Positions 1,558-12,522 of a DNA stretch of 46,159 bases are shown one piece after another. The stretch lies in the UHGV virus genome UHGV-1375912; one strand, given 5' to 3'. A program made the translations under genes and the position numbers. The stretch is from a virus. The notes beneath the pieces are model-generated. The model was given only the letters and a program-made list of their open reading frames with translations, did no database searches and was not told where the DNA came from. Position 1 is the first letter of the stretch; every line of letters starts with the position of its first letter.

Positions 1558-1866
1558 TCATTCTGCTGACAGCATGATTGAAAACTTATCCGACACCTCA
1601 TTTTTATAACGCTCAATGTCGTCATCCATGCTTCTGAATGGCACTTGCTTTCGGCTTCGCTGTAGCGTGTATCCGCAGCGGGCCATGTACCAAAGAAAAG
1701 TGTCGACAACATAGATGTGACCATCGCGAGCATTCCCATTGTCGTTAGCGTTCTGGATTGTATTGTGCATCGCTTTGAACAGGTCTTTCTGGTCATGGAA
1801 GTCGCGAAACTCACGCGGCATGTAATCTCCGCTTTTTAGCCAGGCATAAAGTGGATCGTTTGACAT
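1558..1866 (-). CDS. Hypothetical phage protein.
   Basis: 102-aa ORF in the early-left operon with good coding character. Confidence 0.5.
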   Translation of the reverse strand: MSNDPLYAWLKSGDYMPREFRDFHDQKDLFKAMHNTIQNANDNGNARDGHIYVVDTFLWYMARCGYTLQRSRKQVPFRSMDDDIERYKNEVSDKFSIMLSAE

Positions 1867-3392: not shown

Positions 3393-3704
3393 TTAGTCGC
3401 CGTGATAACGGCGTGCTGCCCATTCTGGATAGGCAGGGTTGGTATCTCTGACCGGAACCTCATGCTTACTGTGCCGGTTGCGCTCAATCGCTTCCTGATG
3501 CTCGACGTACTTCGTCAGACGCCGCTCCGTGGCCTCCTGCACCCATTCCTTTGTCTGGTCAGTGGTCCGTACTGATAGCGACGCCCTCACGCCTTTCTTC
3601 GCCAAAATCTGCTGCTGTGCGTCCTGCATCGCTAACATCCATCTGCGCTGTGATTCCGTTTCATCAGGGCGTGCAGAGTCCGCCGAAGGTTCGGTGATGG
3701 TCAT
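3393..3704 (-). CDS. Hypothetical phage protein.
   Basis: 103-aa ORF. Confidence 0.45.
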   Translation of the reverse strand: MTITEPSADSARPDETESQRRWMLAMQDAQQQILAKKGVRASLSVRTTDQTKEWVQEATERRLTKYVEHQEAIERNRHSKHEVPVRDTNPAYPEWAARRYHGD

Positions 3705-4320: not shown

Positions 4321-4997
4321 GCGGCTGATTCCTTCAGGTTATGAACATTTGATAAGCCCCAGTACTCGCAGATGGTCGCATCCACGAATGCCAGGTCATT
4401 GTCGATTTCGTTGCTTTCAAACATGCCCATCGGTGATTTCACCGTATCGGCACCGTTATTTTTGGTGGTGAAGAAGAACTGCTCATCACGCGTGAGTGTG
4501 CGCAGAACGATAGTGAACATGCCTTCGACGGTGATTTTTTCGTCCAGCATCTTGCCGATCGTTTTCATCTTCACGCGGCCCATCTGCGTCTCTTCTGTGT
4601 GAGCCATGAAGTAGACGCGAAGGTCATCTGGCGCATCCTGAGCAGCTTTAATGATGTCCCATGCGTGCCGGCCGATTTCGGTAAATTTATCGAAGGATTT
4701 CTCTTCGGAACGGCGCATGAATTCATTGCTCATCACATACTGGAAGTCGTCGATGATTACGATCCGCTTGCCAAGGTGATGCGCCCACTTAATGACGTTC
4801 ACGATGGCATCTGATTTATCGGTGGCTACGACAGTCCCTGTTTTTTTGTCCTTATCCCAAGGCAGCCAATCCTTTGACTTGAATGGCAGAGGTTTGCCAA
4901 CAGGCTTAACCAGCATTGCCATATTGGGATCGATGTTGCGCAGGCTGGTAGATTTACCAGTGCCTGACTCACCGAGAATTAGCGTTGCTGTACCCAT
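4317..4997 (-). CDS. Sak4-like RecA-fold ATPase (phage single-strand annealing and recombination protein).
   Basis: Walker A GESGTGKST near the N-terminus. Its ~226-aa size and pairing with an SSB-like gene match the Sak4 family. Confidence 0.7.
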   Translation of the reverse strand: MGTATLILGESGTGKSTSLRNIDPNMAMLVKPVGKPLPFKSKDWLPWDKDKKTGTVVATDKSDAIVNVIKWAHHLGKRIVIIDDFQYVMSNEFMRRSEEKSFDKFTEIGRHAWDIIKAAQDAPDDLRVYFMAHTEETQMGRVKMKTIGKMLDEKITVEGMFTIVLRTLTRDEQFFFTTKNNGADTVKSPMGMFESNEIDNDLAFVDATICEYWGLSNVHNLKESAA

Positions 4998-5188
4998 CAG
5001 TTAATCCCCATTCTCTCTGCCTGTCGCTCCGTACGGTAATCAGCCGCCGCTTCCATGGCGGCCTGCTGTGGCGTCATCTCATCAAGCACTGGCTCTAAGA
5101 TGGCCTTCATCATTTCGATGAAATAGATATCCGGATCAATCATGCTGCGTGCTCCTGGTGAATTGTGTAGCCCTGCTCTGTGAGCCAC
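4997..5188 (-). CDS. Hypothetical protein.
   Basis: 63-aa ORF tightly packed in the operon. Confidence 0.4.
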   Translation of the reverse strand: MAHRAGLHNSPGARSMIDPDIYFIEMMKAILEPVLDEMTPQQAAMEAAADYRTERQAERMGIN

Positions 5189-5334
5189 TCCATGACGTCT
5201 TTGATATCAAGCTGGTTCAGCACCTGCTTGCCGCTGAAGTCGAGCAGAGAGACCTCATCTGCTTCGATAATCATCATGCCGGGGCGATATCCGGCGCGCG
5301 TCTTAAGCTCGCCACATTCAATCTTCATTTTCAT
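5140..5334 (-). CDS. Hypothetical small protein. The start is taken at MKMKIECGEL; the long Arg-rich N-terminal extension of the 5140-5700 ORF is rejected.
   Basis: GGGAGAGAAG RBS before the ATG at 5334. ATGA overlap with the upstream ORF. Confidence 0.4.
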   Translation of the reverse strand: MKMKIECGELKTRAGYRPGMMIIEADEVSLLDFSGKQVLNQLDIKDVMEWLTEQGYTIHQEHAA

Positions 5335-5513
5335 TTCTTCTCTCCCAGCCCGAGGCTTCTGAGCATCAGGTTGATGAAGGTGAAATCCTTCGAGTTCTCC
5401 AGCATCTTGCGCTGGCGCTCTAACTCTTCCTGCTGCTTCTGGTAAGGCAGGGTGGGTGATTGAGTCTTCACGGTTTGCCCTCCTGCGATACGACCTGTAA
5501 CAGGCGCTCCCAA
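5331..5513 (-). CDS. Possible small ORF. The start codon is uncertain (TTG at 5513).
   Basis: It fills the gap between neighbouring ORFs but has no clear RBS. Confidence 0.2.
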   Translation of the reverse strand: MGAPVTGRIAGGQTVKTQSPTLPYQKQQEELERQRKMLENSKDFTFINLMLRSLGLGEKK

Positions 5514-7430: not shown

Positions 7431-7511
7431 CTCAAATAAGTGGAATTGATTTAACTCCGCAGCACTCTCGTGAGAATGCTCTGGAATTACCCGGCGAACC
7501 GGGCGATTTTC

Positions 7512-7682
7512 TTATTTCTCAGCCGCCCATTTACGAGCTCTTGCGCGATTAGCCAAGGCCAGCTCAGTGAAAGAGCGGCGGGAAAGATGCAGGCCCTTCT
7601 GTTTGCTTTCAGCTGCCCGGTCACGGTAATGCTTAACTTCTTCACGACACTCTTTTGCGAAAACTTCAGTCAAAATGCTCAT
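7512..7682 (-). CDS. Hypothetical small protein. The start is taken at MSILTEV with a GAGG RBS; the longer ORF reaches 7766.
   Basis: The internal start avoids an 80-nt overlap with the upstream gene. Confidence 0.4.
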   Translation of the reverse strand: MSILTEVFAKECREEVKHYRDRAAESKQKGLHLSRRSFTELALANRARARKWAAEK

Positions 7683-7684
7683 AA

Positions 7685-7966
7685 CTACCTCGCTGGATAA
7701 ATGCTCTTGGTTGGTTTCCGATAGCCGGCGTAATGCTGCTCTGACATCGCATCTATTTTCTTGCACAAATCATCATGATCTTTTGCTGGTTCATTCGTAC
7801 ATGCGAACGGCCCGCATAGCGCCCAAACTATGTTGTATCTGTAGCCAGACAATTCCGCGTCGTCGCCATTAACGCGCCAAACAGTTCCCGCATAGTGATT
7901 CGCATGATCAAGAACGACGTATTCGACACCTGGCCTGACAGGTGAGTATTTTAAGTGGAGCTTCAT
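7685..7966 (-). CDS. Hypothetical protein.
   Basis: 93-aa ORF. Confidence 0.5.
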   Translation of the reverse strand: MKLHLKYSPVRPGVEYVVLDHANHYAGTVWRVNGDDAELSGYRYNIVWALCGPFACTNEPAKDHDDLCKKIDAMSEQHYAGYRKPTKSIYPAR

Positions 7967-8095
7967 AACCCCTCACTTAATGATGTGTGTTACATCCTTA
8001 CGGACGGTTCGGTAGCCCGCGTTATAGACAGCCACATCCGGCAGACATAACGATGTGCTCTCATGCCTGTCACGCAGAGAAGGGGAGAAGGCGGT

Positions 8096-8422
8096 TCAAA
8101 TGAGTGGAATGCTCTTTCCGCGCATCTTCTGCACTGCGTGAATCTGACGACCAGCTTCATTGCTGACCTTCTGGTATTTGGTGCTGATGCGGTGCTCAAC
8201 GTATGCGGCTGCACCTGCCAGAATCTGCTTGTGATACTCCGTATCTGTTTCAACTGCCTTGACTACGCGGTCAGCTGCTGGGCGTTTGCACTGCAACACA
8301 ACGCGACTTGGAGTAGGTCGATGCAACACTTCAGCGCTAACGCTGGCTTCACTCTGAAGGTGAGCACGACGTTCACGACGACGACCTGAAGCTGAACCGG
8401 AGAATTGAGTTCTGCGTGTCAT
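8096..8422 (-). CDS. N: N-like transcription antitermination protein. First gene of the PL operon.
   Basis: 108 aa. The N-terminal arginine-rich motif MTRRTQFSGSASGRRRERRAH matches the lambda N ARM (RRRERRA). Strong CAGGAGG RBS. It lies downstream of OL and the candidate nutL. Confidence 0.65.
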   Translation of the reverse strand: MTRRTQFSGSASGRRRERRAHLQSEASVSAEVLHRPTPSRVVLQCKRPAADRVVKAVETDTEYHKQILAGAAAYVEHRISTKYQKVSNEAGRQIHAVQKMRGKSIPLI

Positions 8423-8489
8423 AGATACCTCCTGAGTAAATTTTGGCGATGGTACTTATCCATCCCAAAACTCACGCTTTGGTACTAAC

Positions 8490-8536
8490 TGGCTTTTCAG
8501 CCACGTAGGTGATCCGTCACCGTTGTTAAAAGAGCC
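8490..8536 (-). promoter_or_regulatory. Candidate nutL. Read on the minus-strand transcript: boxA-like GCTCTTTTAACAA, a spacer hairpin, CUACG, then a boxB-like hairpin UGGCU-GAAA-AGCCA.
   Basis: The architecture and the purine GAAA loop mirror nutR at 10943-10987. It lies between PL and N. Confidence 0.5.
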
Positions 8537-8583
8537 TGCTGTCCGTTTCGTACTGCGCCAGCTTCCTGCTGATGGAATAATAT

Positions 8584-8649
8584 TCACATATTGTGATTTA
8601 TTGGTCAATCACGATTTGTGTATAAATTCCCCCTTACACGTTATGTGTA
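8584..8649. promoter_or_regulatory. OL operator cluster with three TCACA-N3-5-TGTGA-type palindromes (TCACATATTGTGA, TCACGATTTGTG, TACACGTTATGTGTA). A PL-type promoter (TTGACC -35) is on the minus strand.
   Basis: The palindromes overlap a TTGACC-17 nt-GAATAT promoter reading toward N. The same half-sites occur at OR. Confidence 0.45.
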
Positions 8650-8689
8650 TGATTTTGGTGTGAATTTATTTTTCTTGGTGATTTGCAGG

Positions 8690-8757
8690 CACAAAAAAGC
8701 CCGCTCAGTGGCGGGCTATTCGTGAGGCGGGTATGAAAAACCCGGCGCGGTGGCCGG
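8690..8757 (-). terminator. Tandem rho-independent terminators (AGCCCGC-TCAGTG-GCGGGCT plus U6; CCGGC-GCGGTG-GCCGG plus U5) downstream of the 8768-9715 moron gene.
   Basis: Two GC hairpins are each followed by a minus-strand T-run. The second hairpin recurs at 44763-44784. Confidence 0.55.
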
Positions 8758-8767
8758 ATGAAATTCT

Positions 8768-9715
8768 TTATTCTGTTACGTCTGATGCATCAAGATCTGC
8801 TCCCTTCAGAACCGGATGAACCCGTTCTAGCAGCTCAATAAATTCATCATAATTATCACAAACCTTCATTAAGGTTACGATGCCAGCAAATCTTTTTTGA
8901 AGCATTTCATTGCCAACACCTTCGGAAAGGAACTGGTGCATTTTTGCACCTTGTTTATTGGCCCTTGCCCGCTCCTCTTTCAGTATTGCCTTGAGATCCG
9001 GAGCCATACGGTCATAGGTGATATTGTTCACTAAATGGCCGAAATATTGGGGCTTTCGCATGTTGGCTTTAAAAGGAACCCCGCGCAGGCGACATAATTC
9101 CTCGAAAAACTCTGGTGGATAGACTCTGACCCAAGGGCGCATCTCTTTAGCAATAAATTGCTCAAGTAACTTGGCAAGCTCATCGCGCTCACGCTCTTTT
9201 TGATAGCCAGTTGCTTCATCTACAAGCGCTACCGCGCCAACACGAGCTAATGCCTTATAAAGCGCCTCTGCTTTTCTAGCCGTGTTGAGATGGTGCCTTT
9301 GTTTTAATGCTCCATCTTTTTCTGCTGATAACCAAACCTCGCATAGCTCAGGAAGAAGAGTGGCATCTAATCCATATGCAGCACCTACACCAGAAGTATT
9401 TTTGAAAACGATAGGCTCAGAAATAGCGTCTCGCAGCTCATCAGTAATGTAAGGTTGCAATTCTGCAGCCTGCAAAACATATGGAAGCTGACCAGCCTCG
9501 CCACCAGGAACCCATCTCGGCATTTTGGAGCCTACAGATACACCAAATGTCTCAGCAAGCCCGTTATTACCCTGCATTGATACAACGCGCCTGCCATCAG
9601 GCAGAACGGCACATGAAACCCCTGTCGACATTAATCCTGTGTGAGTTGGTTTTGGTGCAGATCTCACAGCGGCTGAGACTGCTGCGGCCTTTACTGCTCT
9701 TTTTTTAGGGTCCAT
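8768..9715 (-). CDS. Moron protein of unknown function (315 aa) in the rexAB / sieB position between OL and cI.
   Basis: It lies between PL/OL and the repressor. It has its own AT-rich promoter region (9720-9930) and a double terminator. GC is slightly reduced. Confidence 0.65.
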   Translation of the reverse strand: MDPKKRAVKAAAVSAAVRSAPKPTHTGLMSTGVSCAVLPDGRRVVSMQGNNGLAETFGVSVGSKMPRWVPGGEAGQLPYVLQAAELQPYITDELRDAISEPIVFKNTSGVGAAYGLDATLLPELCEVWLSAEKDGALKQRHHLNTARKAEALYKALARVGAVALVDEATGYQKERERDELAKLLEQFIAKEMRPWVRVYPPEFFEELCRLRGVPFKANMRKPQYFGHLVNNITYDRMAPDLKAILKEERARANKQGAKMHQFLSEGVGNEMLQKRFAGIVTLMKVCDNYDEFIELLERVHPVLKGADLDASDVTE

Positions 9716-9926
9716 TTCGATGCCTCACTTATGGGTGTGGCATTAATTTAGCTAATTAAAAATAAGCTGTAAATAGTAGCTAAATTGTATTTTAGCTAAG
9801 ATATCTATCGTTTCTCATAACTAACTGATACTACTGAAATAATATTTTTTATGGATTTAGTAAAATATCAAATTAGCATCAATAAAGCAGCTTAGAAACG
9901 GTTAGCTAATGGATTGGATCATTCGC

Positions 9927-9952
9927 ATAAAAAAGGCCGCATTTCTGCGGCC
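9927..9952 (-). terminator. Terminator hairpin GGCCGCA-TTTC-TGCGGCC plus U6 immediately after the cI stop codon.
   Basis: The minus strand reads GGCCGCAGAAATGCGGCCTTTTTTATG, 5 nt after the stop. Confidence 0.55.
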
Positions 9953-9956
9953 TCTT

Positions 9957-10604
9957 TCACCCAAACGTCTCTTCCGGCCACTGAGCCTTCACCACCTTCC
10001 CAATGATGCGGCAGCTGTGATCGCAATCCAGCACCCTATAAGCCGGATTAAGAGGCACCAGATAGCTAACGCCGCCATCTTTCTCATACTTCTTGAAGGT
10101 CACCTCAGAATCGCCATTTGCTGAGGCAACGCAGAAATCGCCTGTCTCAACATCCTCAGCCGGATCAACCAATATGAGCATACCCTCCGGGAAGCTCGGG
10201 CGAACACCCTGAGGGGCTGTCATAGAATGACCCTTTACCTCAAGCCAGAAGGCGTTCTCGCTTGCTTTCTTGGTTGTCGCCACCCATGACTTTGCATCGC
10301 TCGCGGTATAGCTTCCAACTTCTGAAAAAGGCCCTGCTTGGACAGAGGCGAACAATGGGTATTCATACTGCTTGAAAACAGAGTCGGCCTCATCACCAAA
10401 CATGATCATAGCTGGTGATACCCCAAGGGCAGAACCAAGGATTACCGCGTCGTCAGCACTTACCTTACGTGTGCCTAACTCATAATTACCCAGGCGAGAC
10501 GGAGCAGCCCAACCGCAAAGTTTGGCTAGCTGTACTTGGCTAAGTCCTTTTGCTTCACGCAGGGACTTGATCCTTTCCCCGATTAATTCATGCATTGTTT
10601 TCAT
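9957..10604 (-). CDS. cI: CI-type prophage repressor: N-terminal XRE HTH plus C-terminal S24 (LexA-like) autopeptidase domain.
   Basis: The C-terminal half is near-collinear with lambda cI (GHSMTAPQG...[13 protein letters not shown]...GDFC...FKK...PLNP...GKV...WPEETFG), with the Ser/Lys dyad retained. It is divergent from cro across an operator region. Confidence 0.9.
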
Positions 10605-10711
10605 CCAGTAAATTTACCACAGTTCGTGATTGCACTCCGTACACGAATTGAGGTTGACTGTTAATCACATTTTGTGTGTAATGGTGCTGTGTTTAATGTT
10701 AGGAGGCTGCA
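10605..10711. promoter_or_regulatory. OR region. PR is TTGACT (10654-59), 17 nt, TGTAAT (10677-82), driving cro. An operator-like TCACATTTTGTG sits between -35 and -10. A PRM-type promoter for cI is presumed on the opposite strand.
   Basis: Promoter hexamers with 17-nt spacing. Half-sites are shared with OL. Confidence 0.5.
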
Positions 10712-10930
10712 ATGAACAACATTGCTCAGCAGCGAAAGAAAATCGGAGTTTCGCAAGCTGTCTTGGCTTCAGCTATTGGTTGGGGTCAATCCCGTATCGC
10801 CAACTATGAACTGAACATCCGTACTCCAAGCTTAAATGACTGCCGAGCAATCATTGATGGCTTAAAAAAATTGGGCTGTAAATGCTCGTTGGATGAAGTC
10901 TTCCCACCGTCCAAAGATAAAGCAGCTTAA
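10712..10930 (+). CDS. cro: Cro-like HTH (XRE family) regulator.
   Basis: 72 aa. HTH segment GVSQAVLASAIGWGQSRIANYE. Divergent from cI. Confidence 0.7.
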   Translation: MNNIAQQRKKIGVSQAVLASAIGWGQSRIANYELNIRTPSLNDCRAIIDGLKKLGCKCSLDEVFPPSKDKAA

Positions 10931-10942
10931 GCAGTAATCCAC

Positions 10943-10987
10943 CGCTCTTACACAACGGACATGAAGTCCTACGTCGCTGAAAAGCGA
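10943..10987 (+). promoter_or_regulatory. Candidate nutR: boxA CGCTCTTACACAA, spacer hairpin GGACATGAAGTCC, CUACG, boxB-like UCGCU-GAAA-AGCGA.
   Basis: The boxA matches lambda CGCTCTTACACA exactly. The boxB stem-loop with a GAAA loop parallels nutL. Confidence 0.55.
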
Positions 10988-11074
10988 AATCCAAACGAAA
11001 CAAAAAAAACGTTCGTGGCAATAGCTGCGGCTTTGTCACGTCTAACTACTTAACCAACAAAGGAATGATGTCAC

Positions 11075-11380
11075 ATGGAATTATCAATTTCTCGCAAAAG
11101 CTCGCTCATCAACTGTAAGCCAGAGGTTCTTGAGAGCTATTGGCTTAAGAGCGTACTGGAGTTTGGTAACAATTCACTTGCGAAATTGATGGGGATACAT
11201 CCATCAGCGCTTAGTCGCGATAAAAATCGCATCGCTAAGCTGGCTAGCCAGATGGTTTATCTGCTTGGGTTGCCAGATGGCAGCTATGCAGCTCCGGGAT
11301 GCGAACAGAACGTTGTTATCACGGGAGAGGAGGCAAAGAAGTTGCTTTCGATGCTGGAAAACATCAGGGAACAAAAATGA
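11075..11380 (+). CDS. cII: CII-like transcriptional activator.
   Basis: 101 aa. HTH NNSLAKLMGIHPSALSRDKNR resembles lambda CII TAEAVGVDKSQISRWKRD. It occupies the cII position. Confidence 0.5.
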   Translation: MELSISRKSSLINCKPEVLESYWLKSVLEFGNNSLAKLMGIHPSALSRDKNRIAKLASQMVYLLGLPDGSYAAPGCEQNVVITGEEAKKLLSMLENIREQK

Positions 11381-11414
11381 GAAAGCCGCAAAAGTGGGCA
11401 AACACTCTGCGGCT
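11365..11414 (-). terminator. Antisense (oop-like) terminator: extended hairpin AGCCGCAAAAGTG-GGCAAA-CACTCTGCGGCT, with its U-tract overlapping the cII stop.
   Basis: The minus strand reads AGCCGCAGAGTGTTTGCCCACTTTTGCGGCTTTCTCATTTTTG. Its position between cII and O matches lambda oop. Confidence 0.45.
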
Positions 11415-11456
11415 CAATGCGAAATGACTGGATCAATTCACAGGAGTAATAATACA

Positions 11457-11597
11457 TGAAACCCGATAAACATGAAAGATTTGCCCGACTCAAAGAGCAG
11501 GCCAGAGAGCAGTTTTATCGCAGCATTTCTCAGCTTGGCGCCAGCAAGTTAAGCCAGTGCCTGAAAGAAGCAAAGACTCGGGAGAAGGGCAAATGAC
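11457..11597 (+). CDS. Small 46-aa ORF (MKPDKHERFARLKEQAREQFYRSISQLGASKLSQCLKEAKTREKGK), translationally coupled (ATGA) to the O-like gene.
   Basis: AGGAG RBS. Its stop overlaps the ATG at 11593. Confidence 0.35.
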
Positions 11598-12522
11598 AAC
11601 CGCCAGATTATACGATTTCAGCGCTGCACATGAGCGCAGGAGTTCACGGATGGAAAACCAAAAGCAGGGGCATTTCGCCCTGTTCAGGAGCCTTCTGTCC
11701 AAGGATTGGGCCAGCGACACAGCTAAGTTTGCTTTATGGGTTCGCATCATCGGGCAGGCGCAATACAAACCCCGCACGGTGGAATTTGATGGCGTGTCAT
11801 GGGACTTACAGGCCGGGCAGTTAGTCACCAAAGTTCCTTACCTGGCACGCAAACTTAAGGACTCTCAGGGAAACGAGAAGTCTTCAAAACAAGTACGTGA
11901 CATGCTCGAATTTTTCACGAAAGAGAAGATGATCACCTTCTCTGGAAACCGCCACGGAACGGTGATTACCATCATAAATTACACCGATTATCAGGGTGAT
12001 TTTGAGGTAACAAAGGAAGTAGATAAGCAGGTAACAAACAAACCCAGTGCTGGCGCGGCCTCGCCGACTACTGAGGTAACAAAGCAGGGAACAAATGAGG
12101 TAGAACAGAGTAAGAAGTTACTAGAACAAGAATTAAATAATACCCCTAAATCCCCTGAAGGGGACATGTCGGTGAAGCCTGAAAAGAAAAAGCGAAAACC
12201 GGCTGAACCCTTTGAATTCGACCGTGAGCGATTCAAGGCCACATGGAACCGCAAAGCTCAGCAGTACGGATTACCTCGGGTGATAAGCATCAGCAAAACC
12301 ACTCTGGCGGGAATCAAGCGACTGTACGAATCCCATATTGAGCACTGCAAAGAGACCAAGCGTCCGCCGCAGAACGTTGACACGTTCATCAACGGCTATA
12401 TCGAGTTTGGTTACACGCCGTCCGATTATGCCTGTGGGAAAAACGATGCTGGCAAGAAATACGGCATCGATACCGCTCTTACTCAGAAGATGATCGACAA
12501 AATCATCAGCCAGGAGGCCTGA
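11593..12522 (+). CDS. Replication initiation protein (lambda O-like) with an internal origin. The start is taken at MTTARLYDF; the supplied ORF begins at 11557.
   Basis: Iterons and an AT-rich block lie inside the gene. It is directly followed by a DnaB-family helicase. An N-terminal basic region precedes a linker containing repeated EVTK. Confidence 0.6.
   Translation: MTTARLYDFSAAHERRSSRMENQKQGHFALFRSLLSKDWASDTAKFALWVRIIGQAQYKPRTVEFDGVSWDLQAGQLVTKVPYLARKLKDSQGNEKSSKQVRDMLEFFTKEKMITFSGNRHGTVITIINYTDYQGDFEVTKEVDKQVTNKPSAGAASPTTEVTKQGTNEVEQSKKLLEQELNNTPKSPEGDMSVKPEKKKRKPAEPFEFDRERFKATWNRKAQQYGLPRVISISKTTLAGIKRLYESHIEHCKETKRPPQNVDTFINGYIEFGYTPSDYACGKNDAGKKYGIDTALTQKMIDKIISQEA
12004..12160. 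repeat. Candidate ori: iterons GAGGTAACAAAGG, CAGGTAACAAACA, GAGGTAACAAAGC and a degenerate GAGGTAGAACAG, followed by an AT-rich block (12108-12160).
   Basis: Three to four direct repeats of GAGGTAACAAA lie inside the initiator gene, followed by about 75% AT. This is the arrangement of ori-lambda. Confidence 0.55.

Follow-up and report, generated by a model that had tools for sequence, protein, structure and literature searches.

A probable N/nut antitermination module with two-hairpin, GNRA-tetraloop nut sites in a Pantoea lambdoid prophage

The virus genome UHGV-1375912 (46,159 nucleotides (nt), the whole of which is referred to below as the window) encodes a protein of 108 amino acids (aa) which is very probably an N antiterminator, together with two RNA sites, nutL and nutR, which would be its cognate nut sites. 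The protein and the two sites are interpreted as the early N/nut antitermination module of a Pantoea lambdoid prophage, belonging to the two-hairpin H-19B class and, within this class, to a subtype in which boxB carries a GNRA tetraloop. A probability of approximately 0.85 is assigned to this interpretation.

The protein starts with MTRRTQFSGSASGRRRERRAHLQSE, and an AGGAGG motif is located 8 nt 5' of the ATG of its gene. It falls within the Pfam N_peptide family (PF25694; 58 bits against a cut-off of 27.9, E=1.4e-15) and matches PHROG 271, 'anti-termination protein N-like' (E=9.5e-15), as well as chain N of the lambda antitermination complex in PDB entry 6GOV (E=1.5e-5, residues 10-108). The BLASTP alignment with lambda N likewise extends over residues 10-108, at 35% identity, and includes the motif EYHKQI and an identical terminal GKSIPLI; at the level of sequence, the central NusA-binding and C-terminal RNA polymerase-binding segments are homologous to those of lambda N. 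The heptapeptide RRRERRA at residues 14-20 is identical to residues 6-12 of lambda N, and the arginines R14, R15, R16, R18 and R19 of this arginine-rich motif (ARM) are invariant among 13 relatives. Relative to lambda N, the protein carries an additional, conserved N-terminal extension, MTRRTxFxGS, and its residues 1-52 are 63.5% identical to the VT2-Sakai-type N and 51% identical to H-19B N. In H-19B N, nut-dependent antitermination is lost in mutants carrying R3H, S11F, R15C/P or R18P (PMC3526286; see also PMC4499122). Residues R3, R15 and R18 of H-19B N occur at the same positions in the window N, while an alanine is found in the place of S11. Judged from these alignments, the window N is a mosaic, in which an RNA-binding N-terminus of the epsilon34/VT2-Sakai type is joined to a lambda-type NusA- and RNA polymerase-binding body. 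N is intrinsically disordered when alone.

Each nut site comprises a boxA, a spacer containing its own small hairpin and a boxB hairpin (Table 1). This two-hairpin fold is the minimum-free-energy structure at both sites (z -3.0 and -3.1), with 0 of 200 and 1 of 200 shuffled sequences, respectively, folding as well. With the core boxA set at 9 nt in nutL and at 8 nt in nutR, the spacer between it and boxB measures 23 nt at both sites, compared to 9 nt in nutR and 8 nt in nutL of lambda (spacer sequences in PMC2724277). A covariance model, whose training set included the window's own two sites, retrieved exactly these two from the 46-kb window, at 52 bits each, the next best match scoring 6.4 bits. 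A scan of positions 7500-12000 against Rfam at E<=1 gave no family match, which is uninformative as nut sites are not modelled in Rfam. A preliminary description of this DNA had recognised the 108-aa N-like protein with RRRERRA as the first gene of the PL operon, had placed nut sites between PL and N and after cro, and had read at both a hairpin ending in CUACG followed by a boxB with a stem of five base pairs (5 bp) and a GAAA loop. These points are upheld by the homology searches, by the two model matches and by direct reading, respectively, and the folding of both regions which it had proposed yields the two hairpins. Its claim that the nutR boxA is identical to that of lambda holds for the 8-nt element, which in lambda is 5'-CGCUCUUA-3' (PMC2724277), but not for the 13-mer CGCTCTTACACAA, which agrees with lambda CGCTCTTACACAT at 12 of 13 positions. 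The spacer is indeed longer than in lambda, but the figures given, 18-19 against 8 nt, mixed two definitions of boxA and are superseded by 23 against 9 or 8 nt. The 'lambda ARM' it had reported is shared with lambda as a heptad, but the N-terminal module is not that of lambda, as it bears the MTRRTxFxGS extension and lacks QAQWKAANPLLVGV. A third hairpin, CCAAAGCGUGAGUUUUGG (8465-8482, minus strand), is located 3' of nutL in the N leader and is followed by a G/U-rich tail. Similar CAAAG...CUUUGGGGUG elements occur at the same place in lambda, H-19B, 933W and epsilon34, and this hairpin may represent a boxC region or a leader-processing element.

For comparison, 94 loci encoding this N-terminal module were gathered from genomes and viral contigs, using an alignment of N homologues restricted to the N-terminal type of interest, and sites were located by a pattern search and then by the covariance model, which was derived from 37 distinct sites. 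Nearly all of the loci contain a full-length site directly 5' of N and a second, 1-4 kb distant and past cro, on the other strand. The comparison with phages of similar N, which the preliminary description had suggested, thus shows the boxB hairpins to be present in relatives. The exceptions are L028, a decayed prophage in which N is a pseudogene, L069, in which the leader is disrupted, truncated contigs and the Klebsiella loci L017 and L018, in which only nutL was found. No match to the model was obtained in lambda, VT1-Sakai (phi21-type) or the Pantoea locus whose N is of the lambda type, and the locus with a P22-like ARM gave only a partial match, confined to the spacer hairpin and linker. 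In the decaying prophage L028 (4700-5330) N contains two in-frame stops, and nutL has kept boxB and lost the spacer hairpin. In L069 (4700-5300) N is intact, no nutL is recognisable in the 300 nt upstream and the whole locus is without a match to the model.

The spacer stem is under clear structural selection. In the 46 distinct sites, positions 2-4 of this stem are 100% paired, the pair types numbering 3, 4 and 5, and its closing G-C pair is invariant, the selection of sites having imposed no pairing requirement on it. When the whole structure is considered, paired cells amount to 94.6% (71.6% in shuffles), those with a change on both sides number 79 (26 in shuffles), and none of 500 shuffles reaches the observed covariation score; slid registers fall to 27-45% paired, and RNAalifold independently predicts the same two helices. 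The boxB stems were chosen for perfect pairing, and therefore only the variety of pair types counts there, which is four at position 1 and three at position 2. Hairpins this small, near boxA-like strings this short, might also be unrelated to N, representing terminators, RNase III sites or chance dyads. However, a U-tract is absent after both boxB elements, and the hairpins were not among the terminators reported by the scan. Two copies of one composite element stand at both canonical positions, and their pairing, preserved through compensatory changes, is linked to which N-terminal type N has, all of which renders this explanation extremely improbable.

Across the 46 distinct sites the ACAAY and YACG flanks hardly vary, in contrast to the freely covarying stem which they enclose. 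The sequence GCTCTT(T)(T)A is kept at the boxA position in 66 of the 95 nutL sites of relatives. A strict boxA pattern is found in approximately two-thirds of related sites, with more carrying the variant GCUCUCUAA, and ACAAY is retained even where the boxA core is lost. In Salmonella and Escherichia coli relatives the nutL lacks a boxA core and instead has a small dyad, CACC-AGGA-CGGUG, on its 5' side, with ACAAY being kept. Such nutL sites without a boxA core occur in L016, L019, L021, L042-L044 and L061-L083, as well as in H-19B, 933W and epsilon34 (L004, L005, L007). A recognisable boxA is also missing in approximately 17 nutR sites, and a few nutR sites have the linker CACG in place of UACG.

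The homologue alignment further reveals how the parts of N are combined. One central and C-terminal body (...TEYHKQILAGA...GRQIHAVQKMRGKSIPLI) bears three RNA-binding N-termini in Pantoea phages, namely the window type, a lambda type (MNAQERRRAARAEKQAEWKDANPLLVGV) and a P22-like type, and the window-type N-terminus is also found on P22/H-19B-type C-termini in phages of Salmonella, Citrobacter and E. coli. ARMs of the RRRERRA type (including RRRARRA) are accompanied by GAAA or GCAA loops in boxB, and since the same ARM sequence is sometimes found with either, the second loop position seems to be free. The H-19B ARM (RRRERLKAKALANG...) is accompanied by a GACAA loop. GCAA loops occur at both nut sites in L020, L047 and L084-L102, and at nutL only in L035, L054, L055 and L080. 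The lambda-type ARM of L103 (N at 5001-5312) is associated with nut sites of the form CGCUCCUUAACAUCCCC-GCCCUGAAAAAGGGC (near 4900, plus strand, and 3500-3560, minus strand), which have a GAAAA pentaloop, a boxB equal to that of lambda nutR and no spacer hairpin. The P22-like ARM of L106 (N at 5001-5378) is associated with sites near 4880-4930 (plus strand) and 1740-1790 (minus strand), in which the spacer hairpin and UACG are followed by GAAG and a 5-bp stem with a CGAGAAC heptaloop, the stems being compensatory between nutL and nutR; this boxB matches no type known to us. As the ARM types track the boxB loop types, boxB would be the specificity element matched to the N-terminus of N. In these alignments, the boxB loop type tracks the N-terminal module with the rest of N swapped freely, and the hairpin-UACG module travels separately from the ARM/boxB pair. 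An ARM which binds boxB is also a feature of HK022 Nun, encoded at the same map position, and the protein could accordingly be a Nun-like exclusion factor which binds the nut sites of a competing phage and terminates its transcription. This is highly unlikely, given that a cognate nut site is present in both the PL and the PR operon of the phage itself, that the C-terminus is of the lambda N RNA polymerase-binding type with its GKSIPLI end, that the Pfam and PHROG models both name the protein N, and that sites and protein co-vary in approximately 90 phages.

In the mechanism proposed for the N/nut module, nutL and nutR would, to judge from their positions, be carried on the PL and PR transcripts. 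Residues ~1-22 of N, including RRRERRA at 14-20, would bind the boxB hairpin, as suggested by homology and by the co-variation of ARM and boxB. The target would be a 5-bp stem closed by a U-A pair and capped with a true GNRA tetraloop, equivalent to the lambda boxB fold minus its extruded fourth loop base, and the occurrence of either A or C at the second loop position is consistent with the GNRA fold being what is recognised. The spacer hairpin would sequester 13-14 of the 23 spacer bases, leaving ACAAC (CACAAC in nutR) and UACG as 9-10 single-stranded bases between boxA and boxB, close to the ~8-9 of lambda. This passive spacing role would rest on mutational work on H-19B, with which it agrees: Neely and Friedman (2000) reportedly found that breaking one arm of the dyad inactivates the site, that compensatory changes restore it and that deletion of the dyad has little effect. 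By analogy with lambda and H-19B, these single-stranded flanks and boxA would serve to bring in NusA and NusB/S10; the part of N that would bind NusA is its central region (SRVVLQCKRPAADRV, corresponding to lambda N 34-47 in the alignment), and the lambda-like C-terminus (...GRQIHAVQKMRGKSIPLI) would bind RNA polymerase, which would then read through downstream Rho-dependent and intrinsic terminators. With a good boxA at both window sites, a lambda-like use of NusB and S10 is possible, and the host-factor requirement could differ from that of H-19B. According to Neely and Friedman (2000), H-19B N reportedly needs NusA, and not NusB, S10 or boxA.

In the same N/nut system, the spacer hairpin and its invariant ACAAY/YACG flanks may instead be actively recognised by NusA, by Rho or by the MTRRTxF extension of N, and serve as a second specificity determinant rather than a passive element, which is regarded as a minor but real possibility. 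It is favoured by the near-invariance of the flanks around a stem that is free to covary, by the persistence of ACAAY where the boxA core is lost, and by H-19B, in which N needs R3 of its N-terminal extension and both Rho and NusA leave footprints on the spacer (PMC3526286). The single-stranded ACAA of the window sites also resembles the first bases of the NusA-binding rrn spacer ACAAUUUA (PMC2724277). However, the hairpin-UACG module of L106 accompanies a P22-like ARM without the MTRRT extension, and the extension therefore cannot be its only reader, while the L103 N, with the same central and C-terminal body, presumably works with hairpin-free, lambda-type nut sites. Both observations speak against N itself as the reader, and in H-19B deletion of the dyad reportedly had little effect. 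A further proposal is that hairpin and flanks form a portable module, specifically recognised by NusA, Rho or an MTRRTxF reader and recombining independently of ARM and boxB, and that, with the extrusion-free tetraloop, the N-NusA-RNA assembly differs from that of lambda. The spacer module does occur with at least three ARM/boxB types and is absent from the lambda-type sites of the same phage group; nevertheless, this proposal is considered doubtful.

Several points weigh against the N/nut interpretation as set out above, in which the spacer hairpin is passive. The invariant ACAAY/YACG flanks suggest sequence-specific recognition, beyond what the spacing model explains. When boxA is included, one predicted fold of nutL pairs boxA to the 3' half of boxB, so that alternative structures are possible; this fold was rejected, as the two-hairpin fold wins in shorter and longer contexts and the covariation agrees with it. 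No experimental test of the GAAA-tetraloop subtype was found in the literature, and we know of no experiment on this phage or on any GAAA-tetraloop member.

Table 1. Predicted N/nut module and neighbouring features of UHGV-1375912, with positions in the window
Feature	Position	Strand	Description or basis
nutL, whole site	8490-8535	-	
nutL boxA	8527-8535	-	GCUCUUUUA, 9 nt; read directly; like rrn boxA with one extra U
nutL ACAAC flank	8522-8526	-	
nutL spacer hairpin	8508-8521	-	GGUGA-CGGA-UCACC; minimum-free-energy fold
nutL UACG linker	8504-8507	-	
nutL boxB	8490-8503	-	UGGCU-GAAA-AGCCA; 5-bp stem, GNRA tetraloop, closing U-A pair
nutR, whole site	10943-10987	+	
nutR boxA	10943-10950	+	CGCUCUUA, 8 nt, identical to lambda boxA
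nutR CACAAC flank	10951-10956	+	
nutR spacer hairpin	10957-10969	+	GGAC-AUGAA-GUCC
nutR UACG linker	10970-10973	+	
nutR boxB	10974-10987	+	UCGCU-GAAA-AGCGA
N antiterminator gene, 108 aa	8096-8422	-	PF25694, PHROG 271, lambda N alignment, 6GOV chain N
cI repressor, 215 aa	9957-10604	-	HTH and S24 peptidase domains
cro-like gene, 72 aa	10712-10930	+	HTH_3 domain; cI-cro block with 79.6% DNA identity to annotated cI/cro of VT1-Sakai and mEpX1
Candidate PL promoter	8579-8608	-	TTGACC, 18-nt spacer, AATATT; consensus scan match only
Three operator-like repeats overlapping candidate PL	8581-8655	-	Repeat search
Candidate PR promoter, 5' of cro	10654-10682	+	TTGACT, 17-nt spacer, TGTAAT; read from the sequence, inference only
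P63C-domain protein, 315 aa	8768-9715	-	Pfam PF10546, PHROG 2384, function unknown
Intrinsic terminator of P63C-domain gene	8698-8717	-	

The module is located in the immunity and early-control region of a Pantoea lambdoid prophage, the closest match of the window being a prophage of Pantoea conspicua LMG 24534 (99.5% identity over cI-cro-nutR and 96.9% over N-nutL). On the minus strand, cI is followed by the P63C-domain gene, its terminator, the PL-like promoter with operators, nutL and N, which is the first gene 3' of PL and nutL in the leftward early operon. On the plus strand, the order is a PR-like promoter, the cro-like gene, nutR and a cII-like gene, with nutR starting 13 nt after the cro-like stop codon. 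The candidate PR is adjoined by operator-like inverted repeats and was missed by the promoter scan because of a G at position 2 of its -10 hexamer. The DNA similarity of positions 9957-10936 to the immunity region of VT1-Sakai and mEpX1 (79.6%) ends at the cro stop, a few bases before the nutR boxA, and as the N/nut of these phages is phi21-type, a mosaic joint is indicated between cro and nutR. VT1-Sakai and mEpX1 had been candidate nut comparators and were dropped for the same reason, megablast of the whole region against phages having matched their cI-cro block only. The P63C-domain gene sits between cI and PL, the place of rexAB in lambda, and has its own promoter-like sites and an AT-rich stretch on its 5' side (9716-9956). 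It is missing in the closest relative, L009, while L106 and L107 carry a version at 85% identity, and it therefore behaves like a moron cassette. An antisense open reading frame of 108 aa (8063-8389, plus strand), which overlaps N almost exactly, is most likely a chance occurrence.

The value of this analysis lies in annotation, as N and both nut sites of a Pantoea prophage are placed in the H-19B-class nut family with exact coordinates. What is new is a Pantoea member whose N appears to join an RNA-binding module of the VT2-Sakai/epsilon34 type to a lambda-type body. Nut sites of the two-hairpin design occur widely among the lambdoid phages of enterobacteria, as seen from the 94 loci and from the 182 phage records to which the nutR region gave a match in a distant blastn search. 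These findings leave the present view of N antitermination unchanged, and the comparative set offers natural variants for studies of ARM-boxB specificity or of the nut spacer.

Among the known systems, lambda shares with the window an N that is homologous over nearly its full length, with identical RRRERRA and GKSIPLI, the nutR boxA, a boxB with a 5-bp stem, closing U-A pair and G..A loop, and the map positions of the sites. The lambda spacer is, however, 8-9 unstructured nt, against 23 nt with a hairpin in the window, and the lambda boxB has a GNRNA pentaloop with an extruded base, against a plain GNRA tetraloop. The window N lacks Trp18 and the segment 'KQAQWKAANPLLVGV' of lambda N, as well as its Trp-containing 'QAQWKAANPLLVGV' segment, and has an extra 8-residue N-terminal extension. 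The GNRNA pentaloop recognised by lambda N adopts the fold of a GNRA tetraloop, one base being extruded; lambda N also needs the closing U-A pair, with Arg 6-11 as its most critical residues (PMC12027372), while P22 extrudes the C of GACAA (PMC12550061).

The layout of the window sites is closest to that of H-19B and its relatives, as the ACAAY 5' flank and the C-UACG linker abutting a 5-bp boxB are identical motifs in the window, H-19B, 933W, HK97, VT2-Sakai and epsilon34. The preliminary description had proposed a variant N-nut geometry, which is correct in that the geometry differs from that of lambda, but the same arrangement in these five phages means that the variant is not a new one, having been known from Shiga-toxin phages and their relatives. 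The H-19B N/nut system is the subject of Neely and Friedman (Mol Microbiol 2000, 38:1074) and of Sen laboratory papers (PMC3526286, PMC4499122). H-19B (AF034975) has the nutR CGCUAUUUUCACAAU-[GGAC AUUC GUCC]-UACG-[UCGCU GACAA AGCGA] and the nutL ...ACAAC-[GAUUC GAAUAU GAAUC]-UACG-[GCGCU GACAA AGCGC], and 933W and HK97 have the same sites with the GACAA loop, nutL and nutR being annotated in the 933W GenBank record. H-19B and the window have in common the succession of ACAAY, G-C-closed spacer hairpin, UACG and 5-bp boxB with closing U-A pair, the placement of nutL between PL and N and of nutR directly after cro, a GGAC/GUCC spacer stem in nutR, and an N beginning MTRRTQF...RRRER with R3, R15 and R18 conserved. 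They differ in the boxB loop, which is a GACAA pentaloop in H-19B, as in P22, and a GAAA tetraloop at both window sites, and in N, where H-19B has RRRERLKAKALANGVLAREE in place of RRRERRAHLQSE and a C-terminus of the P22 type (...YAAGYRKSKQLTAR) in place of the lambda type (...GKSIPLI). The H-19B nutL also lacks a boxA core, whereas both window sites have a good boxA. RNase footprinting of the H-19B nutR has revealed two hairpins, one in the spacer and one in boxB. H-19B N, NusA and NusG together protect spacer and boxB, with N assigned by the authors to the boxB loop and NusA to the spacer, which Rho likewise protects (PMC3526286).

VT2-Sakai, which represents a type of Stx2 phages, and the Salmonella phage epsilon34 share the nut subtype with GAAA loops. 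Both have the same nutR boxB 14-mer as the window, and VT2-Sakai has the same nutL boxB 14-mer as well. Their ARMs, GRRRERRA in epsilon34 and SRRRARRA in VT2-Sakai, are the same or nearly the same as that of the window. The epsilon34 GenBank record annotates a 'putative NutR - boxB', and the genome paper only predicts a 'novel BoxB specificity' for its N (PMC2629481). In both phages the central and C-terminal parts of N are, however, of the P22/H-19B type and the host genus differs, and epsilon34 lacks a boxA core in nutL. The nutL spacer stems (GUCGA/UCGAC or GAUUC/GAAUC versus GGUGA/UCACC in the window) differ in a compensated manner. By comparison of the sites, the two-hairpin nut layout is already known from the H-19B class, and the window represents its GNRA-tetraloop subtype, shared with VT2-Sakai and epsilon34.

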